Positions 1,812 through 55,907 of a stretch of 55,907 nucleotides of DNA are shown piece after piece (position 1 is the stretch's first letter; every line of letters begins with the position of its first letter). Under the pieces are notes generated by a model. The model saw only the letters and a list, made by a program, of their open reading frames with translations. It searched no databases and was not told where the DNA came from. Source of the stretch: Gallionella sp. (GTDB lineage: Bacteria; Pseudomonadota; Gammaproteobacteria; Burkholderiales; Gallionellaceae); the NCBI GenBank assembly GCA_041629915.1, contig JBFKMJ010000001.1:1-55907 (forward strand). The letters run 5' to 3'. Made by a program: the position numbers and the translations under genes.

Positions 1812-2014
1812 ACTCTCCCCTTTCCGTACAGCTTTTCCCCGATCTGCCGGATCAGCTCGCAGTCCGTCCACGATAGCCGCTTGTCCGCCACGTCAACCAC
1901 CAGGATGCCGCTCTGATGCCAGCCGTGCGCCTTGACCGCTTCAGCATCCATGCCGGTGCCGGAAAACCGCCCCAGCGGACACTGCGGGTCACTTGGCTTG
2001 TTGCCGGTACGCAT
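1808..2014 (-). CDS. Hypothetical phage protein
   Basis: ORF whose TGA overlaps the Q-like ATG. Confidence 0.55.
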   Translation of the reverse strand: MRTGNKPSDPQCPLGRFSGTGMDAEAVKAHGWHQSGILVVDVADKRLSWTDCELIRQIGEKLYGKGRV

Positions 2015-2174
2015 TCGCCCGCCGCGTGTAGGTCTTGTCCTTGCAGTTGTTGCACACGGTGCGCCAGCCCTTGCCGTCATCGGACAGCATCCGCGTTTTT
2101 TCACCCGCCGGCATCATGTGGTGCCCCTGCCTGCAATAAAACACATCCTTCACATCATTTTTCATTCCACCCCC

Positions 2175-2465
2175 CTATCTGTCCAGCCCGTTCACCAGTG
2201 CGATCACATCACTCAAACTCCCGACCACAAACACACTCCCTTTCCATTCGTCGTGAAACTTCCGCTCATCCTTTGTCAGTTCCCGCGCCGATGGCGGCTT
2301 GCTTCCGTCCTTTATCTCGACCAGCACCGTCTTGCGGTTCTTGCCCACGCAAATATCAGGACAGCCATTGCCGACGTGGTGCAGCAACAGCACCGAGCAG
2401 CCGAACTTGCGAAACGCCCCGACTATCTCGGCGTGGTTAGCGTCGATCTTGGCGGCACGTCTCAC
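2175..2465 (-). CDS. VRR-NUC / PD-(D/E)xK nuclease (resolvase-like)
   Basis: RRAAKIDANH...GCPDICVG...LVEIKDG; GTG start inferred. Confidence 0.75.
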   Translation of the reverse strand: MRRAAKIDANHAEIVGAFRKFGCSVLLLHHVGNGCPDICVGKNRKTVLVEIKDGSKPPSARELTKDERKFHDEWKGSVFVVGSLSDVIALVNGLDR

Positions 2466-2595
2466 AGCGCCACCCATTCCCTGCACCCGCCGGTCAGTTC
2501 GATGCGCCTCCACGGCCTGCGGATGCGGCAGTACCAAGCGGCAAAGGTAGGGTGTTCGAGGTTGCCATACCAGCGGTGGGAGCAGGTGCGGCAGG

Positions 2596-2850
2596 TCATG
2601 ACACAAGCCTTTCCAACGTCACAGCCAGCGCACCAAGCTCATCCATTTTCATTATTCGCCACATCGTCTTTTCGCCGTGCCAGCCGTTCCTGCCGCGATG
2701 ACATTCAGCGCATAACGCAATGCAGGTGTACGGGTTTGACTGTTTGGCGTGGTGTGCCTCGCTTGGGCCGGGTGCGCAGCAAATTGAGCAAGGCAATGAC
2801 TTCACCCTTGCAAGGTGTTCACGCTCGGCCTTGGTGTAATTTTGGTTCAT
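2596..2850 (-). CDS. HNH-like zinc-binding protein (Ref/DUF968-like)
   Basis: LPCSIC...EAHH...IALCAECHRG. Confidence 0.7.
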   Translation of the reverse strand: MNQNYTKAEREHLARVKSLPCSICCAPGPSEAHHAKQSNPYTCIALCAECHRGRNGWHGEKTMWRIMKMDELGALAVTLERLVS

Positions 2851-3241
2851 GCGCGGCTTTCGTGGCGTTTAGGCTTGGGGATCATGCTCCCTCCCGTAAT
2901 ATCAGATCAGTCAGCATCTTGGTGATGGTTTCACCCTGCGCTAGTCCGTTGCCGTCTTTTGCGAACAGGTGCCACAGCCCATCCTGCTTCTTTATCTTCG
3001 CGCCAGCCTCAAGATAGTGCGTTAACAGGCCGTCAAGTACGGGAAACTCAAGCTCACTCATGCGGCCTCCAGTGTGTTGCGTCATCAAACATGTTCAGGC
3101 CGTCACCGAACAGTCCGTAACCCTGATAGATCGTCACCTCTTCGATGCCGCTGGCGCGCCTGACTTCCACCTTCCTGCCGGTGTGAAAGCCGTGCTCGCG
3201 GAAGTCCGGCAAGCCCTGCGTTTTAATTTCGCGCCAGTCGG

Positions 3242-3779: not shown

Positions 3780-4592
3780 TCATTGCTTTACTCCTTCATT
3801 CCGCACATCCATCCGTTGCGGTACGCAATCCTCTCCCAATAACTCGAAAATTGAGGATTGCTTCTTACATCCCGCCTCTTCCCTGCCAGCACCCCCTGCT
3901 GGTACGCAAACTCCAGCCCACTGATCGGCGAAGGCTTGTGCGATTCCCGGGTAGGTTCTGCTTCGTTCTTTCCATCTATCGTCGCTTGGTGGCAGGTTGT
4001 TTTGTCCACCGATTGTCTGGTTTGCATAAATCACCTTTGCTGCACCCGAGTCGCCGCAGCAATTCGGGCACCCATATTTTCCGAGTTCAACATCAAAGCG
4101 ATGCCCGCACCTGCACCCATACCGCCCCGGATGCACATCAGTGGGGACAAGCGGAGGAAGGTTTTTTAGCCACAAGCATGTTTTCTTGCTTGCGTCCTCG
4201 CCGAACCAGTGCGGCTGAATAATTTGATCCGGCTTGCGGATACGGGTCGAGATGCAGCTAACAGGGTTTTCAATGCAGATTCTCGGTATGGGCGCATCCA
4301 TCAGGCTTCTTACGAAATCAAGCGCCTTCTCGGTAAGCTCCGATCTCGGCACACCATTTACCATCACGCCTCGCGTATTCCAGTGCAGCCCGCTAACCGC
4401 AAGATAAGTACATGGCGGGTGGAATATGCCCACATCCCATCCATCTTTCAGAATTCCAAGTACATCGCCCTGAATGTGGTACGGGCTGCCGTCCTCGCTT
4501 TCCAGCAGGTCGCATGACCACGCATCGTGCCCTTTTGCACGGAATGCCTCACGCACCCTGCCGCTGTATTCGCATCCAACAAGCACTCTCAT
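3780..4592 (-). CDS. Phage DNA cytosine methyltransferase-like protein with an inserted Cys-rich segment
   Basis: RVLVGCEYSG...SCDLL, HPPCTYL, IENP, RSRTYPGIA; CRCG..CPNC insert. Confidence 0.7.
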   Translation of the reverse strand: MRVLVGCEYSGRVREAFRAKGHDAWSCDLLESEDGSPYHIQGDVLGILKDGWDVGIFHPPCTYLAVSGLHWNTRGVMVNGVPRSELTEKALDFVRSLMDAPIPRICIENPVSCISTRIRKPDQIIQPHWFGEDASKKTCLWLKNLPPLVPTDVHPGRYGCRCGHRFDVELGKYGCPNCCGDSGAAKVIYANQTIGGQNNLPPSDDRWKERSRTYPGIAQAFADQWAGVCVPAGGAGREEAGCKKQSSIFELLGEDCVPQRMDVRNEGVKQ

Positions 4593-4956: not shown

Positions 4957-6702
4957 CTAAAAATCCACATGGGCGGCCTCTCCGGATGAAGCTCTCTTGC
5001 GGTCATATATCGGCGCGGCGGCGGGTGATGCATCGTGATAGCGTCCGGTAACGCGGTCATAATTGAAATTAACCTTGCCGAGCTTTCCGACGATCTTGAA
5101 TTTGATCTTCTGGATATGCACTTCAACGGGCTGGCTGTCGTCAGCAAGGTTGCGCCAGATAGCAAGGCAGTTATCCGCCTTGTTGCGCCAGTTCGCGGAG
5201 CCTGAAATGTCGTATGGATTGGGCACAGGATAGGTGCCGTCTTTATCTTTGGTCATCAGCTTCGGGTGCGCCACCACGAACACGGCGACCTCGTGCCGCC
5301 TGGCGAAGTTGCGCAACCTTGAAAGCGATAGGCTGATGTATTCGGTTTCGCTCATGGACTCCGGGCGGTCGTGTTCAACCTCATTCCACGGATCAATCAC
5401 CAGCATCCTGATGCCGTCCCGCGCCACCAGTGCTGTTGCCTTGTCCATAATTTCATCAAGGCTGGGCGACTCCGGCATGATCCATTTGAAGTGGCCGTCA
5501 ATCCAATCCATTGCGTCTGCGAACTCCACCCGGCTCATGCGCTCTGTGCGTCCGTGGTTGAATGGCTTGCCGGTATATTTTTCGGCAAGCTTTGAAACAT
5601 GTAGTTTGATCGGGTAGTTTTCTGGCGAATACATCCCAATGCGCCAGCCGTGCAGGTGAGCAAGGTTTACCGCCAGCGCGTCCATTACCTCGCTTTTGCC
5701 ATGACCAGGGATGCCAGTGACGATATTTAGTTGGCCGGGCATCGCGGTAAAGAACTCGTCCAGGTCTTTCCATCCGGTGCTCGCGCCTCTTGGCAATCCT
5801 GTTTCGTAAAGGTCGTAAAGCTCGGATGCCAGTTCGCTGGCCGTGAACACGCCAACAATGGGAACCTGCCTTGCCTCTGCTACAACCTTCGCCACCGCAT
5901 CCTTGCCGTAGGTCACCAACACATCGTTGGCATCCTTGCAGCCGTCCGGCCATGTAACCACCGCACAATTCTCTGCGCCGAACCTGCGAATCAACTCGTC
6001 TTTCAAATAATTACCCGGCGCGTCGTTGTCCACAGCGATGACCCACCGCTTCACCTTTTCCAGTTCGGGCGCGTTGAGGTAATCAAACTTGTTCGAGAAG
6101 TTCTTGGTGTTTGGTGAAGGCGCACCATCCGGCACAGATACGCAATTCAGAATGCCAGCCTCTTCCAGTGATAACTTGTCGATCTCGCCTTCCACAATCA
6201 CAGTTTCGTCGGCGATGTCATTCAGCCCGTACAGAATGCGCTCTGCGCCGGACTCCATCTTGAAATTCTTTTCCCGGTCGCGGTACTTGATGTTCACCAC
6301 TTCCGCGCCGCGGTAGTACGGAAACAAAATGCAGCCGGCTTCCGCGTTAAGTTGCGGCATCCATACCTCGCGCTTGCCGATCTTATTGCGGGTTAATGCG
6401 GCCTGACTGATGCCGCGCTTTGCAAACCACTGAATTGCACCAGGCGATAATTCCGTGCCGGCATAGGACGGCTTGACGTAAGCAACGGCAGGCTTGCTGT
6501 AGGCAGGCTTGCGAACGCTATCGTCTGTCGCCTTTCCTGACCACTCGCAATGCCAGCAATGAAACATGCCCGTGTCCAGGTTCACGTTGAGGCATGGCTG
6601 GTTTTTCTTTTTGCGTGTATGGCTGCATTGTGGGCAAAGCGTTTTTATTTCGCCTGATGTGCGCCCTTTGGTGTCGATCCCGTAGTTGGAAAAGTTCAGC
6701 AT
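4957..6702 (-). CDS. T7 gp4/Twinkle-like primase-helicase
   Basis: Zinc-binding CPQC/CWHC; TOPRIM motifs IVEGEID, AVDND and KDAND; Walker A GIPGHGKS; DnaB-type motifs. Confidence 0.92.
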   Translation of the reverse strand: MLNFSNYGIDTKGRTSGEIKTLCPQCSHTRKKKNQPCLNVNLDTGMFHCWHCEWSGKATDDSVRKPAYSKPAVAYVKPSYAGTELSPGAIQWFAKRGISQAALTRNKIGKREVWMPQLNAEAGCILFPYYRGAEVVNIKYRDREKNFKMESGAERILYGLNDIADETVIVEGEIDKLSLEEAGILNCVSVPDGAPSPNTKNFSNKFDYLNAPELEKVKRWVIAVDNDAPGNYLKDELIRRFGAENCAVVTWPDGCKDANDVLVTYGKDAVAKVVAEARQVPIVGVFTASELASELYDLYETGLPRGASTGWKDLDEFFTAMPGQLNIVTGIPGHGKSEVMDALAVNLAHLHGWRIGMYSPENYPIKLHVSKLAEKYTGKPFNHGRTERMSRVEFADAMDWIDGHFKWIMPESPSLDEIMDKATALVARDGIRMLVIDPWNEVEHDRPESMSETEYISLSLSRLRNFARRHEVAVFVVAHPKLMTKDKDGTYPVPNPYDISGSANWRNKADNCLAIWRNLADDSQPVEVHIQKIKFKIVGKLGKVNFNYDRVTGRYHDASPAAAPIYDRKRASSGEAAHVDF

Positions 6703-7511
6703 ACAAACCCCCGCTCAACCTTAGCTGGCATCACTGAAAGCTGCCCGGCGTAGGATGCGTACTTGGTGGCGTTGAATAATGTTTCAGGTCGCAAATACTT
6801 TGAATTCTTTGGGTCGTTTATCCATTCAGCAGCTTTTGCGTCAATAACCAGCTTCATCTCGTCAAGCGTTGCGCCTTCATTGAACCGCGCCTGAATGAAC
6901 TGGAGGTTTGCTTTAACAGGCTTAAACCTGCTTCCGACTTTTTCGTTGAGATAATCCAGAACAGCAGAACATTCTTCGCCGTTGAATTTTGGTTTTTTGA
7001 CTGGCGTATGGTCGGGCTTGCCCGACAATGCTTTTGACTTTTCTGGGTTATTGGGTAGTTGGGTTACTGGGTTACTGGGTAGCATACAATTCGCATCGCT
7101 TTTTGATGCGTTCGCATCATTTTCTAATGCGCTTTCTAATGCGTTCGCATTACCATCGCTATGCGTTCGCATGGGTTCCGCATTCCTTCTTTCAATCTCC
7201 CACCTGGCTTTTGCGGATGCTCTAGCCAGTTCCGACTTTACATAAAGTGATGCGATTTCCTTTTCGCAGCGTTTATGTGAATACCCATTTTCTGAGAGAG
7301 TGAAAAAATCTTGCAAAACATTTTTTACAGCCTGTTGTTCGTCCGCACTCCGAGCGCATAGCGAACGCATTAAAGCTGCATCATCTGGCGTTAGGGGATT
7401 TTCGTTGGTGTAATACATATCCAACATTTGCCGATACACTCCATGCTCAAGTAAAGATAAATGCGCCGTGTCTTTTCTGTAATCACCAATGTGATGCCGG
7501 TAGTGATGCAC
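6696..7511 (-). CDS. Replication initiator (YdaU/DUF1376 N-terminus, conserved phage C-terminal domain)
   Basis: HYRHHIGDY..DTAHLSLLEHGVYR; C-terminal YLRPETLF; GTG start with AGGAG RBS. Confidence 0.85.
   Translation of the reverse strand: MHHYRHHIGDYRKDTAHLSLLEHGVYRQMLDMYYTNENPLTPDDAALMRSLCARSADEQQAVKNVLQDFFTLSENGYSHKRCEKEIASLYVKSELARASAKARWEIERRNAEPMRTHSDGNANALESALENDANASKSDANCMLPSNPVTQLPNNPEKSKALSGKPDHTPVKKPKFNGEECSAVLDYLNEKVGSRFKPVKANLQFIQARFNEGATLDEMKLVIDAKAAEWINDPKNSKYLRPETLFNATKYASYAGQLSVMPAKVERGFVC
7043..7183. repeat. Probable replication origin iterons inside the initiator gene
   Basis: ATGCGTTCGCAT at 7106, 7139 and 7161 plus degenerate copies; adjacent 9-bp TGGGTTA(C/T)-type tandem repeats at about 7043-7082. 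Confidence 0.65.
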
Positions 7512-7747
7512 TTTGCCGCTCCTTTGCAATAAATCCATTGTCCAGATGGGGTTCCGGTAAAAGGTGGGGTGGAATTGATGCGCGGAACTGTCGCATCGTT
7601 CGGTGGACTCCCTATCCACCCCAAACTGTTAAGCCGCTATCGCAGCCTTGATCTTTGCCAGCAGCCTGCGCACACCTTCGCGCCGGTTCTGGGCTTTCAT
7701 TTTCGGGATGGTGCGGGCATACCGCTTTGCCGCGAGAAATTCAGGTT

Positions 7748-8282: not shown

Positions 8283-8323
8283 ATTTTATTCGATAGGGAA
8301 TATGCTGTCAATCCCTATCGAAT
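8283..8323 (-). promoter_or_regulatory. pR-like promoter with OR operators
   Basis: TTGACA(8311-8306)-17 bp-TAAAAT(8288-8283); operators ATTCGATAGGGAAT at 8288-8301 and AATCCCTATCGAAT at 8310-8323. Confidence 0.85.
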
Positions 8324-8380: not shown

Positions 8381-8701
8381 ATGAGCCTAGGGAAAAGAAT
8401 CAGGGAGCGCAGAATGAAGCTTGGTTATTCTCAAGCCGACCTATCTCGGTCGTCGAAAGTAAAGCAGGGAACCTTGTCAAAGTACGAAAACGACAGGGTG
8501 GAAAGTCCCAAAGCGCCAATACTTATGCGGATCGCAGCAGCATTGGAAACAACGCCAGAGTATTTGATGCATGGTACCGGAAGTGAAAGCATCCATGACG
8601 CTACAGGCACAATCAAAGAGCTGTTGAATGAGGCTCAAAAGAAATCGCCGGAAGCGATAGCAATGCTACTGGCTGCCGCAAAAGCATTACCTGATAAGTA
8701 G
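8381..8701 (+). CDS. CI-like XRE HTH repressor, no S24 peptidase domain
   Basis: LGKRIRERRMKLGYSQADLS...TLSKYEND; lies between the two operator clusters. Confidence 0.85.
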   Translation: MSLGKRIRERRMKLGYSQADLSRSSKVKQGTLSKYENDRVESPKAPILMRIAAALETTPEYLMHGTGSESIHDATGTIKELLNEAQKKSPEAIAMLLAAAKALPDK

Positions 8702-8760: not shown

Positions 8761-8802
8761 ATTCGATAGGGATTGACATGCATATTCTTTTTCGAATATG
8801 AT
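8761..8802 (+). promoter_or_regulatory. pL-like promoter with OL operators
   Basis: TTGACA(8773-8778)-18 bp-TATGAT(8797-8802); 8761-8778 is the exact inverse of 8306-8323; second operator ATTCTTTTTCGAAT at 8784-8797. Confidence 0.85.
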
Positions 8803-10518: not shown

Positions 10519-10590
10519 GCCGAACGATGGAGGTAAGCGGGATGAATGAAGCGCAGCGGAATGAATATCCGCTTGACCGTTTTGTTATAC
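10519..10590 (-). other. attC-type recombination site (72 bp)
   Basis: Minus strand: R'' GTATAAC-5 bp-L'' GGTCAAGC-central hairpin-L' GCTTACC-6 bp-R' GTTCGGC. Confidence 0.85.
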
Positions 10591-11153
10591 CTTATGGTTA
10601 TCAGTGCATAGTCGCTGATCCGCCGTGGGATTACAAAACGCCAGGGCAGATAGGTAAAACGCTTGACCATAGACCGAATAGAGATAAGGGTGAGTCAAAG
10701 CACGGGGCGGGGAGTGTGGCACGATATGGGGCCATGACCATGCAGGAGTTAATGGCGCTACCTATAGCCGATCTAGCCGCAGAAAATGCCCACTTGTATT
10801 TGTGGACTACTAACGCATTTATGGAGCAAGCATACCCTTTGGCAAGAGCGTGGGGTTTTGAGCCAAAGACAATACTGACGTGGACAAAAACCAGAAAATC
10901 GGACGGGCAGCCCTCTATGAAAATGGGATACTACTACCGAGGTGCGACAGAGCATGTGTTGTTCTGCGTTAGAGGGAGTCTGCGTTTACAAGGTCTCGCG
11001 GCTCCAACTGCAATTTTTGCAGAGAGGCTAAAGCACAGCCAGAAACCAGAAGAGTTTTATTCTATGGTTGAGGCGCAGACCCCAGGCCCAAGGCTAGAGC
11101 TTTTTTCTAGGAAACTAAGGGCTGGCTGGAGAGCTTGGGGTAATGAGGTATAA
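10542..11153 (+). CDS. MT-A70-family adenine methyltransferase (cassette cargo; ORF also open from 10527)
   Basis: IVADPPW, HLYLWTTN, AWGF, MGYYYRGATEH.LF, HSQKPE, LELFSR..R.GW..WGNE. Confidence 0.9.
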   Translation: MNEAQRNEYPLDRFVIPYGYQCIVADPPWDYKTPGQIGKTLDHRPNRDKGESKHGAGSVARYGAMTMQELMALPIADLAAENAHLYLWTTNAFMEQAYPLARAWGFEPKTILTWTKTRKSDGQPSMKMGYYYRGATEHVLFCVRGSLRLQGLAAPTAIFAERLKHSQKPEEFYSMVEAQTPGPRLELFSRKLRAGWRAWGNEV

Positions 11154-11217
11154 CGGCTAGCTTCACCGGATCTGGCGCGGCTTTATGCGCCAGGTCCGGT
11201 GGAAGCGATAGTTATGC
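11148..11217 (-). other. attC-type recombination site (70 bp)
   Basis: Minus strand: R'' GCATAAC-5-L'' CTTCCACC-hairpin-L' GGTGAAG-6-R' GTTATAC. Confidence 0.88.
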
Positions 11218-11236
11218 AACAACTTTGGAGATTGAA

Positions 11237-11626
11237 ATGGCATCACAAATGATTGGCATGACCGAAATTGGATGGTTCAACCCTGGTGTGAATCCCCCGC
11301 CCTTTGACATGAAGCTGTTGCTGATGGTGGCTGGGTTGCGCTCTGAGGACTGCGGGCAGACATTTGAAGCCTACACGAAGGTGATGACAGCCTACGTGAA
11401 GCAGCGCGGCCCCGGCGACGAATACGATGACGAGCCTGCGTTTGATGAGTTCATGTCTGGCGACCACACTGATTTTCTCGACTTTCAGTTTTACCTGAAT
11501 GACGAGGATGGTGAAGAGCTGGACTGGTACAGCGACAGCATTGTGGCTTGGGCATATTACCCGCTCGGCCTGGCACATACTGCCGTGAATGTTGAACGCG
11601 AACGGCAGGCGGCGATTGGTGCATAA
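11237..11626 (+). CDS. Acidic hypothetical protein (cassette cargo)
   Basis: GGAG RBS; its stop TAA lies inside the GCATAAC core. Confidence 0.75.
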   Translation: MASQMIGMTEIGWFNPGVNPPPFDMKLLLMVAGLRSEDCGQTFEAYTKVMTAYVKQRGPGDEYDDEPAFDEFMSGDHTDFLDFQFYLNDEDGEELDWYSDSIVAWAYYPLGLAHTAVNVERERQAAIGA

Positions 11627-11678
11627 CGCCGGAAATCACGGGTCGGCGTAGCCGGTCCCGTGGATTGACTTGTTATGC
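11621..11678 (-). other. attC-type recombination site (58 bp)
   Basis: Minus strand: R'' GCATAAC-5-L'' AATCCACG-hairpin-L' CGTGATT-6-R' GTTATGC. Confidence 0.9.
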
Positions 11679-11699
11679 GTAACTTTTAACGGAGGCAAC

Positions 11700-11924
11700 A
11701 TGGCTACAAATTTGGCATTACAGAAAGCAGCACAAGCATGGTGTAAGGAAACCACGAGCCACAAAGAAATGGACGCGGAACTGGCCGAAGCCTTTGCCGA
11801 GATTCTTGACGAGATTTGGAGCCAGCCGTGGCTTGGAAACGCCACCACTGGGGAAATGCTCGAAGAATTGAAAACGCGGGCAGAGATTCATGGCTATTCC
11901 CGGTATCGGACTGTTGACGCATAA
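11700..11924 (+). CDS. Hypothetical protein (cassette cargo)
   Basis: GGAGG RBS; its stop TAA lies inside GCATAAC at 11919-11925. Confidence 0.75.
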   Translation: MATNLALQKAAQAWCKETTSHKEMDAELAEAFAEILDEIWSQPWLGNATTGEMLEELKTRAEIHGYSRYRTVDA

Positions 11925-11983
11925 CACGCTGTGAACGACAAGAAACGGCGGCGCTTTGCCGCAAATAGATAAGGAGAACAAAT

Positions 11984-12781
11984 ATGACTACAGCACTCGC
12001 AACACTATCCACACAACTAGCCGCAAAGTTCGATATGGGCGACGGCAGGGATGTGGCAGACATCCTCAAGGCGACAGCCTTCAAGGGCGGCACTACGCAG
12101 GTTAGTGACGCCCAAATGACCGCCTTGCTTGTTGTTGCCAATCAATACGGGCTCAACCCGTTCACCAGGGAAATCTTCGCATTCCCGGACAAGGGCGGCA
12201 TTGTGCCGGTCGTCGGGGTTGACGGTTGGGCACGCATCCTCAATGACCATCCGCAATTCGATGGAATGGAATATGAGCAGGATGATGAGAAATGTACCTG
12301 CATCATTTTCCGCAAGGATCGCAGTCACGCCATCAAGGTTACTGAGTACATGGCCGAATGCAAGCGCACTACGCAGCCGTGGCAGTCACACCCACGCAGG
12401 ATGTTGCGCCACAAAGCAACCATTCAGTGCGCGCGCCTCGCATTCGGTTTTTGTGGAATCTACGACCAGGACGAGGCTGAACGCATTATCGAGCGCGACA
12501 TGGGAACCATCGACGGCTCCACCGGCGAGATCATCCAGAAAAAGCAGGAGCAAAAGGAATTGCCGGACTACACCGACGAGCAGATGGACTTAAACATTGA
12601 TAAGTGGCAGGCCGCCATCAACGAAGGCAAGACAACACCGAAGCGCATTATTGCGATGGTTTCCACCAAGTTCAAGTTGAACGACGGTCAGGCAGCCACA
12701 ATTCGCGGCATGAAGAAAGAGGGAGCGGTTGATCCGTTTATTGCTGAAATGGAAGCCGCAGAGCAAAAGGAGGCAGCATGA
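11984..12781 (+). CDS. bet: RecT/Red-beta-type single-strand annealing protein
   Basis: QYGLNPFTREIFAFP.KGGIVPVVGVDGW...PWQSHPRRMLRHKA.IQCAR.AFG. Confidence 0.92.
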   Translation: MTTALATLSTQLAAKFDMGDGRDVADILKATAFKGGTTQVSDAQMTALLVVANQYGLNPFTREIFAFPDKGGIVPVVGVDGWARILNDHPQFDGMEYEQDDEKCTCIIFRKDRSHAIKVTEYMAECKRTTQPWQSHPRRMLRHKATIQCARLAFGFCGIYDQDEAERIIERDMGTIDGSTGEIIQKKQEQKELPDYTDEQMDLNIDKWQAAINEGKTTPKRIIAMVSTKFKLNDGQAATIRGMKKEGAVDPFIAEMEAAEQKEAA

Positions 12782-14430
12782 ACATCATTGAATTAGTCCA
12801 GGGAAGCGAAAGCTGGCACAAACACAGGGCCACACACCTAGGCGCAAGCGAGGCCGCTGCGATGCTCGGCTTATCAAAATACGTTACTCGCTCCGAGCTA
12901 CTGCGCCAGAAGGCCACCGGCCTCTGCAAGGACGTGGATTCCAATACGCAGGCCATATTCAACCGGGGTCATGAGACGGAAGCGCTGGCACGCCCCTTTA
13001 TTGAGACAATGATCGGAGAAGAACTCTGGCCTGTAACTTGTGAATCCGGCAATCTGTCATGCTCCTGTGATGGGCTGACACTTGATAATGACATTGCCTG
13101 GGAGCACAAACAGGACAGCAATGCGCTCTTTTCATCGGTTGCCACCGGAAAAATGCCGGAAGAACACCTGCCTCAGTGCCAGCAGATATTGATGATTACC
13201 GGGGCGAGCAAACTGATCTTCACGGTATCCAACGGAACACCGGAAAGAATGGCGAGCCTTGAGGTTTACCCGGATCCGGCGTGGTTCGAGCGGATCAAGG
13301 CTGGCTGGGTTCAGTTTATGCTCGACCTCGAAAATTACAGGCACATCGAACATGCCGAAAAACCGCAGGCCGAAGCGATCATGCAACTGCCCGCCCTATC
13401 CGTCCAGGCCACCGGCATGGTGACGCATTCCAACCTGCCGGAGTTCAAGGCGGCGGCGGAAAGCTACATCGCCAACATCAACACCGACCTGCAAACCGAC
13501 CAGCAGTTTGCTGATGCCGAGGCCACAGTGAAGTTCTGCAAGACCACCGAGGAAACGCTGGAAGTCACCAAGAAGGCCATCCTCGCGCAGACCTCGACCA
13601 TCGACGAAGTGATCCGCACGGTTGACCACATCCAAGCGCAGCTCCGCGATAAGCGGTTGATGCTGGATAAGCTGGTGAAGTCGGAAAAAGAGGCGCGCAG
13701 GCACAAGATGGTTTCAGACACAAACGCCCTATTCACCGCGCACCTTGCTGACCTGCAAGCCGAAATTGCTGGCATTCGCTTGGATGTTCCGTCGCCAAGG
13801 TTCGTTGATGTAATCAAGGGGCTTAAATCCCTGTCCTCGATGCACGATGCCTTGGATACCGCGCTGGCCAACGCCAAGATCGAGGCCGATGCGGTCGCCA
13901 AGGACGTGCGCGCAAAGCTGGCATGGCTCAAGCATTATGACTCGCTCAAATTCTTGTTCGCCGACCTTCAGCAGATCATATCCAAGCCGCTCGATGATTT
14001 TCAGCTTGTAATAATGAAGCGCGTGGACGCGCATAACGAGGCAGAGGCTGAACGCAAGGCCGCACATGAAGCGGAAGCAGCAAGGAAGCTGGAAGCGCAG
14101 CGCGCAGCAATACAGGCCGAGGAAGAACGCAAAGCCACCGCCAAGGCGCAGGCAGCAGCCGAGGCTATCGTTGCCGCAGAACGGGCGAAGCAGGCCAAGG
14201 AAGAAGCAAAGGCACGCGCCAAGGTTGAGGTGGAGCAGCCAGCACCGCTAACCGTGCCGCAGTCCGCACCGCAAGCGAAGCCCGACAACGTGGTCGTGAT
14301 CGAGCATCAGGACGTTATCAGCGCATTCATGTCCTCGCGTGACTTCGGCAGGGATGCCGGGAAAGTCCGGGCAATTTTGGTCGAGTTTGTGAAATTCAGT
14401 GAACACTTTGGCAGGAAGGAGGCGGCATGA
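12778..14430 (+). CDS. YqaJ-like viral recombinase exonuclease with long coiled-coil C-terminus
   Basis: QGSESW..HR...ASEA..., GH..E..AR, SCDG, WEHK, Q.QQ. Confidence 0.9.
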   Translation: MNIIELVQGSESWHKHRATHLGASEAAAMLGLSKYVTRSELLRQKATGLCKDVDSNTQAIFNRGHETEALARPFIETMIGEELWPVTCESGNLSCSCDGLTLDNDIAWEHKQDSNALFSSVATGKMPEEHLPQCQQILMITGASKLIFTVSNGTPERMASLEVYPDPAWFERIKAGWVQFMLDLENYRHIEHAEKPQAEAIMQLPALSVQATGMVTHSNLPEFKAAAESYIANINTDLQTDQQFADAEATVKFCKTTEETLEVTKKAILAQTSTIDEVIRTVDHIQAQLRDKRLMLDKLVKSEKEARRHKMVSDTNALFTAHLADLQAEIAGIRLDVPSPRFVDVIKGLKSLSSMHDALDTALANAKIEADAVAKDVRAKLAWLKHYDSLKFLFADLQQIISKPLDDFQLVIMKRVDAHNEAEAERKAAHEAEAARKLEAQRAAIQAEEERKATAKAQAAAEAIVAAERAKQAKEEAKARAKVEVEQPAPLTVPQSAPQAKPDNVVVIEHQDVISAFMSSRDFGRDAGKVRAILVEFVKFSEHFGRKEAA

Positions 14431-14603
14431 GTCCAGCCCAGCGCGTACAGCGAATCCTTGATGAGGCCGTCGGCAGCGACCTGTCATCGTGGGAGAAATT
14501 CGAGTTCTTGCCCAGCATCAAGGGGCGCACCAGCCTTTCTGAAAAGCAGGAAAAGGTTTTGCTCGGAATTGAGCAACGTATTTTTGAAGAAGGGGAAGAA
14601 TAA
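14427..14603 (+). CDS. Small hypothetical protein (58 aa, not in the ORF track)
   Basis: MSPAQRVQRILDEAVGSDLSSWEKFEF...; overlaps the upstream stop and the ssb start. Confidence 0.65.
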   Translation: MSPAQRVQRILDEAVGSDLSSWEKFEFLPSIKGRTSLSEKQEKVLLGIEQRIFEEGEE

Positions 14604-15019
14604 TGTCAGTAAATAAAGCAACCCTCATTGGCCGCGTCGGAAAAGACCCGGACATTCGCTACACCACCGGCGGTGATGCCGTCGCGTCATTCAGCCTGGC
14701 CACATCGGAAAGCTGGAAGGACAAGGCCGGCGAGAAACAGGAGAAGACCGAATGGCACAACATCACCGCCTGGCGCAAGCTGGCCGAGATCATCGGTGAG
14801 TATGTGAAAAAGGGCGATCTGCTTTATATCGAAGGCAAGATCACCACGGAAAAATACACCGACAAGGAAGGCATCGAAAAGTATTCGACCAAGATCGTCG
14901 CGCACGAAATGAAAATGCTGGGCGGCAAGCGGGATCGTGAAGAGCAGCAAACATCAACAAGCGCACCGGCAGCAAAGGCGGGTGCGTTTGACAACTTTGA
15001 TGACTCAATACCATTCTAG
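14603..15019 (+). CDS. ssb: Single-stranded DNA-binding protein
   Basis: SVNKATLIGRVGKDP...TEWH...LYIEG; acidic DDSIPF tail. Confidence 0.95.
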   Translation: MSVNKATLIGRVGKDPDIRYTTGGDAVASFSLATSESWKDKAGEKQEKTEWHNITAWRKLAEIIGEYVKKGDLLYIEGKITTEKYTDKEGIEKYSTKIVAHEMKMLGGKRDREEQQTSTSAPAAKAGAFDNFDDSIPF

Positions 15020-16977: not shown

Positions 16978-17121
16978 ATGGAACTCCTAGTCCTGTTCGC
17001 TATCGTGCTATTCGCCGTCCTGGCCTACGCCCCGGAAGCTGCCTTGCAGATTCTACTGGCCGGCGCATGGCTGCTGATGATTGTCGCCGGGATCGTCGGG
17101 ATACTGATTAAGGTGTTCTAG
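16978..17121 (+). CDS. 47-aa membrane protein (not in the ORF track)
   Basis: MELLVLFAIVLFAVLAYAPEAALQILLAGAWLLMIVAGIVGILIKVF; two hydrophobic helices. Confidence 0.55.
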   Translation: MELLVLFAIVLFAVLAYAPEAALQILLAGAWLLMIVAGIVGILIKVF

Positions 17122-20100
17122 CCTCAAAATTGTCCACGGCAGTATTGAAGCGCAGCATTTCGGCAGTAATCCGATCCTCCACACTCCTGATTTTCTCCCT
17201 TGGCGCATCCTTCTCGATCAGTTCCCGCTTCTGCTTGCGCAGCTTGGCTATGATCTTGTCGGCATACCTTGCCCGCATTATCAACTTAGTCTTGGGGTTT
17301 TCCTTGCGGAACTCGTCGGTGGGCAAGTGATCCTCGCGCCGGCCTTTCAGTTCCATTTCAATCATGTTGATCTCTTTCAGGTTAGCGTAATACTTGGCGC
17401 CCTGGCTGGATTGGTTTTCCAGATTGCCGTAGAACCGCCCCACCAGCGGCATCTTGTGCGTCGGCAAGTCCTCGCCGGTGTAAATCGCTTGCCCGGTCTG
17501 CGCAAGTTTTGAGGTCTCGCGCCCCACGCCGCCCGTCACCTGCCCGATCAGGTAGTCTATCTGGTCGGCGGTCGGGCTGAACGTGCCCGGCGTGTAATCG
17601 GTGCCGCCGGTCGCGTAGTTGATGCCTTCCGCCATGAACTTCGACCATGCGCTTGCCGTGTCCTTGTTGCGCGTGAAGCCGGGGGTTGGGTCGAGCGAGC
17701 TGAAATCTTCCTTGTAGATCGTCTTGCCCGTCCAGTCCTTATTCGCTTCGAGCGCGGCAAACGGATCAAACGCGGTCGGCAGGACGGTCTGCATGGATAT
17801 TCCGGAGCTGCCCATCGGGTTGAAGGCTTCCGCGAACACACCCATCAAGCGGAACACATGATCAGCAGGCTTCTTGAATCCGCCCAGCGCGTACTCGGTG
17901 GCGATTCGCCCGACGTTCGGGATGGCGTGAAAGCCCAGCGGCATCGGGATGCTGATGTAGCGCTTGCCGCCCATCGCCCAGCCAATCGGGAAAATCAGGT
18001 TGCGCTCGCGTATGAATTCAGGCGGCTCGTCGTCGAACCCGGCAGCGGCCAGCGCCAAAGCCTGCATCACGCCCAACAACACCCCGCCCGCCACGATCTT
18101 CTGCCCGACCTTGGACAGGCGCAGCGTCTTGATGTCGCCGCCCTTCATATCAAATACGTTCTCGCCGATCCGCGCCGTGCCCTGCATCGCGGCATTGAAG
18201 AAAGCGTATAGCGCCCCGGCCTGCTGCCCGGACTGCCCCTTGCGGTTGAAGTTGACGGTGGTGTTCTTCGCCAAGCTGGCCGCCGCCTGTTTGGTCATGC
18301 CGTGATCGATGGCGGTCTTGTAGATTGCCAGCCGGGTCGAACCTTCCATCATCAGGTTGTAGTCGGACAGCCAGTCGAACAGCGGCGACGCCATATCCTG
18401 CGCCGTGGTCAGTGGCACTTTCAGCATCCCGCCAGCCGTGAACACCTTGCCCCACTTACTGTTCACCCAATTATGCGGGTCAAGTTCGTGCTCGATGGCC
18501 TTCGCCCTATCCTCGCTGTTACGGTACAGGTCGCGGTAGCCGGTCATGCCGCCGCTGTCCTGCAATTCTTCCCACAATCCAGCCCACTTCGATGTTGCTG
18601 GCGCGCCCTTGCGCTCGGCGCGTGCATCCAGATAGATGCCCTTTGCCGCCGACAGGACATGCCCCAGCACTACCTTCTGCTTGCCCGCTAAAGGCGTGGA
18701 GGTCAGATTGAGCGCCGCAGCCTGCACGTCGCGCACCAGGTTGGTCACGCCGAAGATCGGGTTGTATTGGGTGTTGATTGCGGAGAAGTAGCGGGTGATC
18801 TTGGCCGACACACCCAGCAATCCGCCAAGCTGTGTGGCGTCCAGGTTCTTCATCGACTCAGCCATGCGCACGGCGCGCTCGTCGTGCTCGTTGAAGATAA
18901 CCGCGCGCTCGTGAATTTGCCCGTTGCTGTCCTTGATCTTGGCGACCACTACGTTCGGTTTGCTCCTGAACGTCGGGTCGATACGCTCTTCCACCAGCCC
19001 GGTCTTCTCGTTCAACACGCGCTCGGTAGGGGGTTTGTCGAAAGACCAGAAATCCGGGTTCGGGTTGAGCTTTGCCAGCCCAGCCAGCGCCACGGCGACG
19101 CGGTTCTTCTCGCCCCGGACGATGGCCTTCTCGCGCTGCATGGCGATGTTGGCGAGGATGTCCACCACCTTGGCGGACGAGCCGGTGCGGTGCTTGACCT
19201 CTTTGCCTTTGATCGAAAAGCCCTGCCCGACGCCCATGCCGCCGTCGTGATCCTCGCGCATCAGCGGGACGTAGTGCTTGAACATTTGCGCCCAGCCGTC
19301 CACCTGGTCGCGCGATACCAGCCCGTAGGAGGCGTAATATTCGCGCGTCTTGGCGAGGATGGCGTCCACCCGTCTGGCCGTTGCTTCCAGTTGATTGCGC
19401 TTCGTGCCCTGCAGGTTGGCGAAGTAATCGTCCGCTTCCTGGTTGGTCATGCCCGAGCCGCCGTCGGGCATGTTCGGATCGCGGCTTGCGATCAGCGCGT
19501 TTGCTTCCTTGGCGTGGCGGGCGTGCAGATATGCGTCAAGTTCTTCCTGCTTCATTCCGCGCTGCGCCATCTCGATCATCATCGGCTTGAGCTCGGTGTT
19601 CACAAAGTCTTGCACGCGCTTGGCCGCCCTGCCGTGGAACAACTCCTCCTGAAGGTAGGCGTTCCACTGCTCGGCAACTTGCGCACCCGTTTCGCGGATC
19701 GCTTGCAGCACGCGCTTGAGGTCGATGTTTTTGTCCTGGAGCTTGTAAACCAGATCGTCGAACATCGAAGGTTCAGGCGAATCCCATGATGCGCGGTTGC
19801 CGGGTTGCCCTCCTTGAAGCGTGATATTGCCTTGGCGTGGAGGTTGCGCCGGTGGCTGCGCCGTGCCGGGGATGGGTTGCTGCTTGGGTGCGCTGGAGAA
19901 CAGCGGCGTGTCGCCCCACATCTCCTGCTCCAGTTTGACAAGATCGCTCTGATAGAGTACCTTGTAACTGCTCCCAGCGGCGGACTCACCACCAGTAGAA
20001 GCTCCTCGGGTGGACAGAGGGGTTTCGCTACCTCGGGAGTATTTCTTTTGCGCGACATTAAGCGCAATACGCACAACATCCGGTATTTTCTTCGTCGTGT

Positions 20101-23100
20101 CACGATAGATCAACTCGCCGCGCGACAGCCGCTTTGTCACTTCCTCCCATTTTGTGTTTGGCTCGTATGCGGTAACAATTAAAGTACGTTCACGCGATCC
20201 TGAGACTTCGGGGCGTAAGGCAATAAGAGTTGGCCTCCCTTCACGCAGCTCACCAATAATCACAATACTGTCGTTCTTGGTGTCGCTAAACATCATAGCG
20301 GGGCGACGCATCATGTCAGCCATCTGACCAAACATAGAGGCAGTTACAGCATGGTCATAGACCAACTTGTCTATTACTTTTGCCTTGATTGCAAGGGGGC
20401 TGTCCTTCCAGCCAAACAACTGCAAGCTGGCTGGTGTATTGTCAGCAAGGAGAATATTGCCATCGGCAGGAATATCGCCACTCAAGAATTTATTTACAGA
20501 TTCCTTGAACCGCGCGCTGATAACGTCAATCGCTTTCCATTCATGCGCGCGGCTTGCCATCACCCCATTTGACACGCCCGCCGTGTCATATCCTTGCTCC
20601 GCACCCTCAACCGCATCCTTCATCCGCCGGATCAAGCCCAGCACCTCTCCGTCGCTCACCTCTTCAACCGGCTTGCCGGTCACGCGACCAATGAAGTTTC
20701 TTACCGCATCCACCACCCGCTTAATCATGCCCAGCAGGTTGCTGCGCATCCCCATGGGAACCTTCACGCCATAGCGCTCCATAATGGCATCGACGTTGCC
20801 GGTGATGGTGGCCGCGGCCAGTTCGGCAATCGCCTCGTCGGTGTGCGTTCTCGTATCGAACGTTTCGCCGCGATCCGCCGCAATCGCCTGGGCGAGCTTC
20901 GCCACAAAGCCGTTCTTGGCGGCAAAGTTCAGCGCATCCACTACCGGGCTGCCCAGCATGCGGATTCCTCCGTGGCCTGCAACTTCATGGATTGCCACCC
21001 AGACGGCGCGCTCCGGCGATGCGAGGTTGTCCGCGATCAGGTAGACGGTTCTGGTCTTGGGGTCGTAAATGCCCTCCGAATCCTGGGCTATCGGCTTGGC
21101 TGCACGCAGAGCGCGCAGGTAAAGCTCGCTCGGGATTTCCTTGACCGACTGCACGATCCTGACTTGCTTGAAGCCATGCCAGCTTGCGCGCAGCTTGGCG
21201 GTGGCTTGCCTGACGGATTCGATGGTTTGCGGGGTGGCGTTGCTCGCACCGGCAAAAGAGTGAAGGCCATTGACAATATCCTGCTCAGTCTTTACAGTTG
21301 CACCTGAGCCTTGGCTGAGTGAACCACCTTTGGGCAATTGGAGCCCACTGCGTCGTACCCAATCAAGGCTTTTCTCTTGGTTTTGATAAAGCAAATAGCC
21401 TTTATTGATCCACGACTCAATCGCGCCAATCTCCTCTTTCCCATAAATACTGCCGATCCGGTTGACCGTCTGACGGCCTTCTTTGGCTGATAGATGAACG
21501 GCAGCAATAACTGGTGCGCCATTTTCATCCATCATTTCGGTCAGCACAACCAGTGAATTTTCTTCGCTTGCCGACTTGAACACCATCACTGGGTTTGCAA
21601 GCTCTTCTGGTAGAGCACGAATTGCATCCATCGAAACATGGTGCCTCACGCCATTGGTTGCCTTGCGCACCACGTCGCGCGAAACCTGGACGGGCAGATT
21701 GCTTGCTCCAAGCTCTTGCAGAACGGCAGGTGTAGAACCAACAGTGATCGGGCTGACAACGGACTTGAGCGACGACATCGCGGAATCAAGTGAAGCGCGG
21801 AATGATTCCGCTTCGGAACGGTTCGGCTTCAGCGCGCTGCTTACTTGCGCCTTGCTGTGCTTTGCCGTGATTGAAACGTCCTTATCGTCAAATATGACGT
21901 AGTTGTAGTTGCCGTCACCTTTGCTGCGGCTGCTGCCGTCGAGATATTTGATACCGCGGATGCCGATGGAGTGGAGGTATTTGCTGGCCTCCGCATCTAT
22001 CCAGTCACGCTCTTCCGATATATCCGCATACAAATCCTTCCCGAATTTTACTTGGTTCTTTTGATACTTCCCGTTAATTTTTATTTCATCTGGTTGCTCC
22101 GATACATCAACCCCTGCGCTGCCAAGCGCAGCCTTCACCTTTTCGCTCTGCTCGGAAAGCGGCTTGTCCCATAGCAGGTATTCATTTTCGTCTGGGGCTA
22201 GCTCAACTTGATAGAGTCGGCCTTTACTTACCGCCCACCCATCCGCTTCTAAAACATCCTTAACTAGTTTCGCGTCAGGCGAGGTTGCGTGTGTGCGTGG
22301 TTTGGCATCCCAACTTTTAGGGGTATTCCCAAACTGGTCGATCACTGTTTTTACAGTGACGTGCCACGCCTTATAATTGTCTCCATACTGTTGCGGGCTG
22401 AACGATACAACTTCATCCGTTCCGCTGTACCCTTTGACTTGTCGCCCAGGCTTGAAATACTCGTTGAGCAAATCAGTGCCCGCCAATTCTTTTCCGTTCT
22501 TGGTGGCGCGCAAGGTGGATATATCAGATCCGCTCGATAGCTTGGTTTTATACCACTCTGCAACATCCTTCGATCCTGCGAAATAAAGGCCGTGACCGTA
22601 TGCCTGATTCCCTTCACCTGCGCCAACGTACTCCATGTCGAACTTGTTGTGGTCATGCGGTGAGCCGTGCCAGGCGTCCATAAACGCAGGATCGGAATAG
22701 TGCCACTTGGCATTGAGCATCGAAGGCGGCGCACCCTCGCGCAGCTTGGCGAAGGTGGAAACGATCAGGTCGCGCGCATCTTTCTGTGCCGCATACTCCC
22801 GCCATGCCTGCGCCGCTTCCTTGAAGCCGAAGAAGTCGGCCAGCTTGGCGATCCATTCGGATATGGTGCGCTTGGCCTGCGCCAGCTTGGTGTTGTTCTG
22901 GTATCCGGTCGGCTCGGTCTGCATGATCTCGGCTAAGTCTGCCAGCGCTTCATCCACCGCACGGGCGCGCACATAGCCGTGCTTCTTGGTTTCGGCCAGC
23001 TTCTTTGCCTCGGCGGTCTGCATCCAGGCATTCGCCCTGTTTCGCACCCAACCGTCCTTCATGTACAGCTCGCCCATCTTGGCGATATACTGTTCCTCGG

Positions 23101-26100
23101 TCATAAAGCGGCGGAAGCCGAAATGGAGGAGTTCATGCCACAAGGTACGCACAACAGCAGCGCGGTCGGTCAGCCCATCACGGAACAGGTGGATGCGCCC
23201 GTTATAGACAGCACCGGAAGTTACCCCGTCATCGGCGCTTTCAATGCCAGCATCCCGCGCCGTGTCGCGGATCAGGACGGGTATTTCCGTGGCAAATGGT
23301 TCGAGAAGCTTGCTCGTTTCCTCTTCAAGCAGGCCGACTGACAACCATTCGGATTCCGGTATGGCATCGCCGGGCTGGGTGTTGAAGATTGCCACGCCCT
23401 TGTCGGTTTCCTTGGTCTGGACAGTCTTGAATAGTTTGTCGAATGCCGCGTTAATCGCCTCGCGCTCGCCGCCTTCCGGGTATGGCTTCATTCCCAGCGC
23501 GGCGTAATAGCGGTTCTCCACGCCATATACCAGGTAATCGCTCTGCTGTTTGCCCGATGTCAGCTTGTCAAAGATGTACGACTCAAACGCCCTTGCGCCC
23601 ATTTCTTCCGGCGTTGACCAGTAGTTTGATGCGCGATACCCGTCAATCTCTTTAGCCTCAAGGAAAAAGTCGGTGCGCCCTTGATAGGTTACTGTTTCAT
23701 CATCTTTGGCGTCGAGCTTGATCTTGCTTTCCTTGATTGCCTCGACTGGCCATATCAGTTGGCGGCCTGCGCTTTGCGGGTCTTGTCTCAAGAAGCTGCT
23801 GCCGCCCACCGCCTTGTAAATGGCGTTCATGTCGCGGATATGTGTACCGATATTGAAGCCCATCGCAAAACGCATTTTGCTTGGATTGTCGATATGGATT
23901 TGCTCGCCCTGATCGCCGTTGCGCAGCTTGTCGGCCAGCGCATCCCATTGTTTGAGCTGCGCTTCTGTGGCTGGCTTTTTACCTTCTTTCCACGGCGCTG
24001 TCAGCGTGCGGCGCAGGTCGTTAAGCTTGTAATCCAGGCTCTTCACCGCATCGTCCAGCCGCTTCTGCGCATTCTGGCGCACCAGGTTGGCATCGGTAGT
24101 TCTGGATTTTTCGGCGTAATTGATCGTCTTGATGACGTGCTTGATGGCTTCGGCCAGTTCTGCACGCATCGGTGATTTGCTGTTGTACTGAGCATTATTC
24201 GCCACCATGCTGCTGCCGGAATAACCGCTGCCTTTGGCAAAATAGTGGTCTACGCTGTGCCACCACTCATGAGAAAGACTGCCAGCACCGTTGATCTTGG
24301 TCAGGTTGATTAACCCCTTATCCGGCGCGTAGTGAGCGGCAGCAGAGGTTTTGCCGCCCTTGCCGTCCGCACCCAGCCCCAGCACCATATCGCCATTCAG
24401 GAACAGCGCTTTAGGCGGAATACCCAAGGTGTCGGCCAAGTCCATCAGCCCGTCATAGGCGTGGTTCGATAGCTCTTGCCCATCGTCGTTGACCGTCTCG
24501 TCAGCGTTCAGCAGCCAGTTGCCGTACACCACTCCGCCAGGCGCGAAGGTGTCAATGAACATCTGCTTGGTGACGGGCTTGCCGTTGCGCCGATCCGCAC
24601 CGGTGCGCTCGATCTTGTCCAGCCAAGGGCGTTCCGGGAACTCGAATTTATGCTCGATGATTTCCACCGGCTTGCTTGCGACGTGCTGCATCGCATCCTC
24701 GTAAGTGGCAAAACCGCCTTTCACCAGCGCGCGCTTCTTTCCCTCGGCCAGCAGGCGGTAGATTCCCCATTGCTTCGTTTTATCGGTGATGCTCTTCAGC
24801 GCGGCATCTTGCGTGCCGGGGGCATCGTAGGAATAAACTTTGTGATTGCGCGCCACCTCGACCAGCGGAATAGAATCAAGCGCCTCCTGCTCGGTAGCGA
24901 AGAATTGGCGGCTGACCAGTGCGACCGCACCCTTCATCTGCGCGGACTTCTTCATCACCTGCCACTTACCGATGTTCGGCTTATCCAAGTATCCGGCAGT
25001 TTCTTCAACCTGCATCACCATATATGGGCGCGCCCATGCCGGGCGATCATCCGCTTCTTTAGTCATGCGCGATCCGGTTGGTTTTGACTCGTCCTTGCGA
25101 ACCGACACCTTGCGCCCGAAGTCGCCTATCTTGGCTTCCTGCCCACGGCCTTGCAGCTCATTGACTGAAGTAACCGGCAATATGGCTATTTCGCTTTGCA
25201 CCGGCTCGATGGCATCCGCCTGCTCGATTGCGGCTTCCGCTTCTGCTGCGCGCTTCACTTCACTGACAGGTGCGGCTGCTGCGCTGGAGGGTTGCTCCGC
25301 CTTTGGTTCCTGGGGTGGCTTCCACCCTTCCGCCGCCAGTGCCTCTACCATATCGCCATTCTTCATAGTACCGATTGGCACCATGATGAACTTTTCGCCG
25401 TTGGTTAGATAACTCCGCTCCGACGAGGGGTGAATGGTAGGCCATCCACCAACAGACCCAGCTTTCGATGCCTCGCTTTTTTCATCCCAATACTTGGCGG
25501 CAGTAGCTTTATCGTCAAACTGCACGTCCGGCCTCGCGTAGTCGCGCTGCACGTCCAGCCGGGCATTCCTCTCTGCGTTCTGACGACGGCTCATTTCCGC
25601 GTCGATGTCTGACTGCGTGTATTCGGGGAATAGTTCGGTCGGGTGTGCAATACGCCCATCAGGCAGCGTGACGTGGTAGCGCACCATTGCCCCGGTGATG
25701 TCGGACTTCTCGAACAGCTCCGGCTGATAGGCGTAGCCCATGCGCTCGTTGCCGTTGCGGTCAAGCCCCTTGGATTCCTTCTCCGCGCCCTTGGTCTTGT
25801 AAACATCGACAAGCGTTTTCAGGACGGATTTTTTCTGCTCTTTGGTGAGTGCAGCGCCGACACTTCCGCGCTCGACTGGTGGTGTACCGGCATCAGGATA
25901 CGCCTTTTCCAGATCCTCCAGCGAATGCTTGCCGTCCTTAAAGTCGCGCATGATGTCCAGCCTGTCCTTGCCGGTGACGTTGGCGCGGTCTAGGATGGCG
26001 GTGGCTTGCTGCTCTTGGGCGGCCTGCATATCTGCGTCGGCCTTGGCTTTACCTGTTTGCTCAGCCGCAGCCGTCGCCCGTCCGTCAGGCGTGAACATGC

Positions 26101-34933: not shown

Positions 34934-34962
34934 CAATAAAAAAGCCGCCCGAAGGCGGCTTG
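34934..34962 (-). terminator. Intrinsic terminator (identical 29-mer at 42829-42857)
   Basis: GCCGCC-TTCG-GGCGGC followed by a T-run on the minus strand. Confidence 0.85.
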
Positions 34963-42828: not shown

Positions 42829-42857
42829 CAATAAAAAAGCCGCCCGAAGGCGGCTTG
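42829..42857 (-). terminator. Intrinsic terminator after the capsid/decoration genes
   Basis: Same UUCG hairpin plus T-run as 34934-34962. Confidence 0.85.

Positions 42858-55258: not shown

Positions 55259-55907
<649 letters not shown>

Follow-up and report, generated by a model that had tools for sequence, protein, structure and literature searches.

Gene cassettes in the phages surveyed here are, almost throughout, built the other way round from those of bacterial integrons. The recombination sites (attC) appear to keep their normal polarity and the gene is the flipped part, so that the mobile unit would consist of a front hairpin followed by its gene. We give this reading a probability of about 0.8. 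The reversed layout itself is not a product of chance but a phage-specific form of integron cassette with a broad distribution. The earlier note had proposed a distinct phage cassette class from the present array, and the survey bears this out: the antisense layout is found nearly throughout the viral sites and the opposite one in bacteria.

The array lies in a window of 55,907 nt (the whole stretch of DNA analysed, from a Gallionella sp. assembly), which is an entire circular phage genome with a 141-base terminal overlap. The genome plan is lambdoid: cro and the replication genes are on the minus strand, cI is at 8381-8701, and a plus-strand operon follows that ends in bet, exo, ssb, xis and int. 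The attC array is placed within this leftward early operon, with small early genes before it and bet after it; the genes for a Bet-like annealing protein, a RecE-like exonuclease and SSB (11984-15019, plus strand) are immediately 3′ of it. The operon is likely driven by a pL-like promoter at 8773-8802 (plus strand), which lies just after cI, matches the consensus at 11 of 12 positions and shares sequence with one of the two 18-nt inverted repeats on either side of cI. The consensus scan gave no further match from this promoter to position 12100. As the scan total of three is about the chance expectation of 3.3, the case for pL comes from its position beside cI and from the repeats. A 12-nt operator-like word occurs three times (8288-8323 and 8761-8778), overlapping two divergent promoter-like sites around cI.

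Several other features of this genome may be recorded. An IS3-family transposase gene and an ALIL pseudoknot span the circle junction (83-712 and 55537-55653), and contig C7 begins with a 94% similar copy. A 361-aa ORF (1932-3017, plus strand), which matches no PHROG or NCBIfam family, runs opposite to the replication operon, and a second DNA methyltransferase gene is at 3780-4592. In the virion region, a 4096-aa ORF (17108-29398, minus strand) closes the virion operon, and an exact 29-nt direct repeat (34934-34962 and 42829-42857) has a similar word on contig C37.

The three attC sites are at 10519-10590 (attC1), 11148-11217 (attC2) and 11621-11678 (attC3), each with its top strand on the minus strand. 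Read on that strand, all have the layout R″ (7 nt), 5 nt, L″ (8 nt, with an extra C at position 4), loop, L′ (7 nt), 6 nt and R′ (7 nt). For attC1 the boxes are R″ 10584-10590, L″ 10571-10578 with the extrahelical base at 10575, L′ 10532-10538 and R′ 10519-10525. In spacer length and in the place of the extra base they conform to attC sites, as they do to a control site. The L boxes pair at 7/7 positions in all three; AAC/GTT cores, an imperfect palindrome and an extrahelical base in L″ are all present, as in any attC. A strict geometry detector, run on the phage's own assembly (1,612,102 bases in 284 contigs), found these three sites and nothing else, and it found none in any of 30 shuffles of the window. 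Rfam had no match at the three sites.

The earlier note had set plus-strand genes against minus-strand attC top strands. The geometry agrees, and so does a covariance model built from 52 bacterial attC sites with sense genes, which scores the minus strand at 34.4, 37.2 and 54.8 bits for attC1, attC2 and attC3, respectively. Thus the plus orientation does not score better; at E ≤ 10 no plus-strand match was present at any of the three places, and the runner-up anywhere else had 12.7 bits. It should be noted that the model is partly circular, since its training sites were chosen by the same geometry rule; the independent anchor of polarity is therefore that this rule gives sense genes in bacteria.

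Three attC sites within 1.2 kb on one strand with no intI nearby make the array a CALIN. The circular phage contig has no intI such as a complete integron would carry, and hence none on the attC top strand, as an inverted-integrase integron would have. In a classical cassette the gene is sense to the attC top strand and attC lies at its 3′ end; here 3/3 genes are antisense. In each of the three cassettes R″ and the core at the opposite end are complementary. The head of the array, where attI would be, carries a lone crossover core with its flank (11919-11940, minus strand; core 11919-11925), which forms no hairpin and complements the R″ of attC3. On a phage-attI matrix this core ranks 30 among 1615 AAC sites and is not singled out; on the distal part of the matrix, chosen after the fact, it ranks 2 of 1615. 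By its letters, 11919-11940 may be a weak attI-like or secondary site. No consensus match to a Pc-like promoter was present on the minus strand near 11925-12100, and the genes point the other way.

The first cassette (10525-11153, 629 bp) carries a gene for an MT-A70 family DNA methyltransferase (10542-11153, plus strand; 203 aa), recognized by PF05063, the DPPW motif and phrog_359; its family suggests DNA adenine methylation activity. Gene 2 (11237-11626, plus strand; 129 aa), in a unit of 473 bp (11154-11626), matched no PHROG or NCBIfam family. Gene 3 (11700-11924, plus strand; 74 aa), in a unit of 298 bp (11627-11924), has homologues in eight viral loci. The TAA codons at 11151, 11624 and 11922, like the GGAGG at 10529-10533 and the ATG at 10542, are exactly where the earlier note had placed them. 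Its statement that every stop is built into the R′ of an attC stands for the methylase gene (attC2) and gene 2 (attC3), and fails for gene 3, whose stop at 11922 falls in the hairpin-free lone core.

Orientation was surveyed with one degenerate attC pattern, which gave 131 loci in viral contigs (14/64 parts) and 151 stretches in genomes (2/64 parts); the first 80 of the 131 viral loci and the first 80 of the 151 genome rows were scored, with full flanks. Gene strand was called by a codon model that, against 98 annotated genes, agreed in 87, disagreed in 4 and made no call in 7. The codon model replaced calling by longest ORF, a method too coarse for GC-rich DNA (62 reversed, 32 classical and 51 unclear among 145 sites of 131 loci). 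Among 113 viral attC sites, 97 were antisense to their genes and 3 sense (10 uncalled, 3 without room), a strong antisense bias in line with the expectation of the earlier note. Among 166 bacterial sites, 94 were sense and 9 antisense (55 uncalled, 8 without room). By locus majority, with some loci overlapping, 51 of 56 viral loci were antisense, 1 sense and 4 tied, and 43 of 55 bacterial loci were sense, 2 antisense and 10 tied. The integrons of host relatives (15 sites in 20 regions) had 10 sense sites, 1 antisense and 4 uncalled. These loci are not independent, owing to overlaps and related phages, and the pattern favors proteobacterial-type sites.

A check that bypasses the caller agrees: antisense frames had PHROG matches in 22 of 75 cases, sense frames in 1 of 75 (the first 75 of 109 each), methyltransferases being the commonest named cargo. 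R″ matched the R′ on the far side of the body in 46 of 56 viral pairs, compared with 15 of 56 for the R′ of the same site, a test that is blind to polarity. Cassette size is similar (median gap 347 nt in phages and 380 nt in bacteria), and the genes upstream are co-directional in 46/56 viral loci. Classical exceptions exist among phage arrays, in TJE1 and locus L082, with further exceptions in L408 and L445; P12002L, with one reversed and one classical-looking site, was left out of the counts. On a Rhodanobacter contig (L256:2759-3900), three antisense cassettes carry small phage-like genes, and this stretch is possibly a prophage. A stop inside the core is nothing unusual in itself: the TAA of R′ ends 42/95 reversed viral genes, and that of R″ ends 44/94 bacterial sense genes.

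What moves can be read from the junctions in relatives. Gene 2 is a widespread mobile cassette, with homologues in 14 viral and 49 metagenome loci and, among 400 other genomes of the order, in one. Over the 65 loci, window included, the body is 417-418 bp (one is shorter), and its conservation stops at the AAC overlapping the stop codon. In these loci gene 2 runs antisense to every one of the 78 attC sites. The flanks are more varied downstream (28 types among 42) than upstream (10 types among 56); flank pairs at least 80% alike number 58/406 upstream and 7/406 downstream. As diversity is greater downstream, gene 2 travels more with its front hairpin. The homologues of gene 3 break at the same place, their homology ending at the stop TAAC. 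A bacterial control for the co-travel of hairpin and gene was uninformative, since attC sites are alike within one genome.

The front hairpin is nevertheless not fixed to its gene and is itself exchanged, though less often than the downstream flank: just 24 of 62 gene-2 pairs with bodies at least 97% identical share it. A second process must thus swap hairpins, which canonical excision does not explain, and the breakpoints of these exchanges seem to lie inside an arm. Such swaps, together with bet and exo directly 3′ of the array and the lack of intI from the phage and its assembly, would suit a view in which the hairpins are relics of integrons that are shuffled by hairpin homology, through Bet and the exonuclease or through replication slippage, with no integrase at work. 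We consider this improbable as a general account, though it may explain the hairpin swaps. The downstream junctions fall at AAC between unrelated hairpin types, the ends of the bodies remain complementary, and some junctions are at attI, a site that offers no shared hairpin. Of 26 loci with Bet relatives, 2 carried a site (one of them a classical copy) and none offered an empty-site version, and contigs of four sequencing runs, with fragmentary cover outside one run, gave no cassette-skipping joint.

The hairpin also has a part in reading the first gene. The earlier note had put the methylase ribosome-binding site and start inside attC1, and this holds for either possible start: the only in-frame ATG, GTG or TTG codons ahead of DPPW are at 10527 and 10542, both within the attC1 hairpin. 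By elimination, attC1 would supply the Shine-Dalgarno GGAGG, the ATG (together 10529-10544, plus strand) and the first 16 codons (10542-10589). Among 120 homologues the median number of residues ahead of DPPW is 9.5, compared with 25 here, and one 80% homologue starts with the same hairpin-coded peptide. Hairpins of the attC1 type start MT-A70 genes in three other loci (L013, L073 and L374) and a Mom-like gene in a fourth (L372). In the predicted RNA fold of attC1 the methylase ATG is paired and the Shine-Dalgarno half open, so that the hairpin may tune translation of the methylase.

Such features invite the thought that the hairpins persist chiefly for RNA control (to damp translation, or as signals for processing or termination) and have lost recombination. 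Sites with a Shine-Dalgarno and ATG inside attC, followed by an ORF of at least 60 aa, number 12/106 in viruses and 0/154 in bacteria. The mRNA-like strand is also predicted to fold more stably than the other in all three sites (-17.5 vs. -12.8, -45.3 vs. -35.0 and -28.1 vs. -23.8 kcal/mol for attC1, attC2 and attC3), attC1 being the weakest DNA fold, with a predicted probability of core pairing of 0.13 on the bottom strand. However, a stabler bottom strand is expected of any attC, and RNA control leaves the AAC/GTT cores, the asymmetric spacers, the extrahelical base and the precise junctions unexplained. In class 1 arrays, deletion of attC is reported to have had mostly small effects on expression (10.1101/2024.03.26.586746). 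As a replacement for recombination such control is quite unlikely; as an addition it is compatible with a flipped gene behind a working attC.

Phages with their own integrase give the geometry a second test. In all, intI was detected in 51 viral loci. In them, with some loci duplicated, 76/83 covariance matches were on the strand opposite intI, and in 50 of the loci 20/23 detector sites had antisense genes; two loci had sense cassettes. A conserved attI-like core was present in 26/26 chosen loci. The upstream gene could be called in 27/32 viewed loci, and all were on the intI strand, reading into the attI-like core. In loci L397-L447 this core lies about 50-60 nt before intI, and attI-like remnants end several arrays with no detected intI (L013 after 7259; L395, L146, L120 and L088). 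In a quick and provisional tree with only 23 bacterial rows, 29 viral rows form a virus-only IntI branch (SH-aLRT 97), and the enzyme of one reversed array (L397) is nested among those of the host genus.

A bacterial integron has taken up one of these cassettes. In a closed chromosome (G143), an integron between sdhA and sdhB, with an intI of 485 bits, has as its first cassette at attI a homologue of gene 2 preceded by the most frequent front hairpin, and classical cassettes lie behind it. The captured reversed cassette (L499:14416-16000; G143:C1, about 1074400-1076000) points into attI and would be antisense to Pc. This capture and the geometry of the intI loci indicate that the recombination geometry is regular and the gene the flipped part. 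That the cassettes are instead classical, gene then hairpin, and that a phage recombinase reads the hairpin in mirror image and cuts the other strand is very improbable: the virus-only IntI branch among the sampled enzymes would fit and the inverted cores flanking the bodies look alike either way, but the genes end at attI rather than start there, they travel more with the front hairpin, G143 took one up with canonical polarity, and the L397 enzyme is nested among those of the host genus.

Under the flipped-gene reading, the mobile unit would be the front hairpin plus gene, with crossover at the AAC overlapping the stop codon, and the phage's own early promoter would serve to express the genes. 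The integrase is likely supplied by the host or a co-infecting phage. No intI scored over the TIGR02249 cut-off in the phage's own assembly (92% complete, 284 contigs), the phage integrase at 15936 gave no TIGR02249 match, and none of 50 array-bearing viral records had intI, 11 of them at least 90% complete. Among same-genus genomes, 21/36 have an intI match. In phage integrons, the operon would run towards intI and attI at its 3′ end, so that only reversed cassettes could be expressed. The reversed layout would be an adaptation to read-through, as the earlier note had suspected. In addition, genes that lead away from the replication origin would have their coding strand as the template for lagging synthesis. 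By the lambdoid rule the origin may lie within the replication gene at 6696-7619; in that case the lagging template at the array would be the plus strand, which would favor folding of the bottom strand there. A lagging-strand template is reported to raise attC folding and excision (PMC5371416).

A bolder extension, which we regard as possible and rather doubtful, is that phages run a mirror-image cassette pool in which new cassettes are made from ordinary phage genes by one integrase cut. A hairpin before any gene would provide the recombination site and, if needed, a ribosome-binding site and start, and a stop codon followed by C would serve as the crossover core. The virus-only IntI branch with its own attI would serve the pool, which would leak into host integrons. 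The idea draws on one hairpin type heading different genes (MT-A70 and Mom-like), on the ten front-flank types of gene 2, and on a gene-3 homologue without any attC (L381). If true, it would suggest how integron cassettes, whose origin is unsolved, could arise, by a route open to testing; the start and stop codons within recombination sites make cassette formation directly testable. More generally, a phage pool with the same chemistry and a flipped gene means that integron recombination serves the exchange of phage accessory genes, and captures of the G143 type mean traffic between phage and host integrons.

That phages carry CALINs whose attC sites are recombined by IntI1 is already established: Qi et al. 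(2023; PMC9892861) reported 17 CALINs in 10,705 genomes and recombination of phage attC with attI1 by IntI1, the bottom strand being favored above the top. The present array resembles theirs in having an attC cluster without intI in a phage and in DNA methyltransferase cargo. They treat TJE1 and PH101 as typical. TJE1 is classical; the annotated genes of PH101, whose cassette genes have no family matches, are on the strand that they call bottom and are hence reversed, and its two sites recombined with attI1; MW202573 is reversed too. The reversed gene layout goes unremarked in their text, where the words "antisense" and "opposite" do not occur; the figures or the Dryad file may show arrows. 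Here, unlike there, reversal is the rule across viral contigs. Literature searches that did not extend to subscription journals or preprint supplements turned up no account of phage cassettes with this reversal, nor of an IntI branch belonging to phages.

With classical cassettes, both of class 1 and of the chromosomal integrons of the host's order, phage cassettes share the attC geometry, the extrahelical base, crossover at AAC, complementary ends, a similar size, common hairpin families and uptake at a bacterial attI. They differ in that the gene is on the bottom strand, the hairpin comes first, the stop is in R′ and not R″, the start is sometimes in the hairpin, there is no Pc, and the cargo is phage accessory genes. 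The strand selectivity of attC is taken to serve the landing of genes in the sense of Pc (PMC8946536, PMC5371416). Insertion of cassettes at GWT sites, as outlined by Loot et al. (10.1101/2022.09.11.507474), is a possible route by which arrays are founded at a secondary core without attI; since it moves intact cassettes, it alone could probably not turn a gene round with respect to the attC of that gene. The inverted-integrase integrons of the Treponema type (Cury et al., 10.1101/030866) also have intI and the genes on one strand. The Treponema type, however, flips intI relative to attC, whereas phage integrons keep the geometry of intI, attC and attI and flip the genes.
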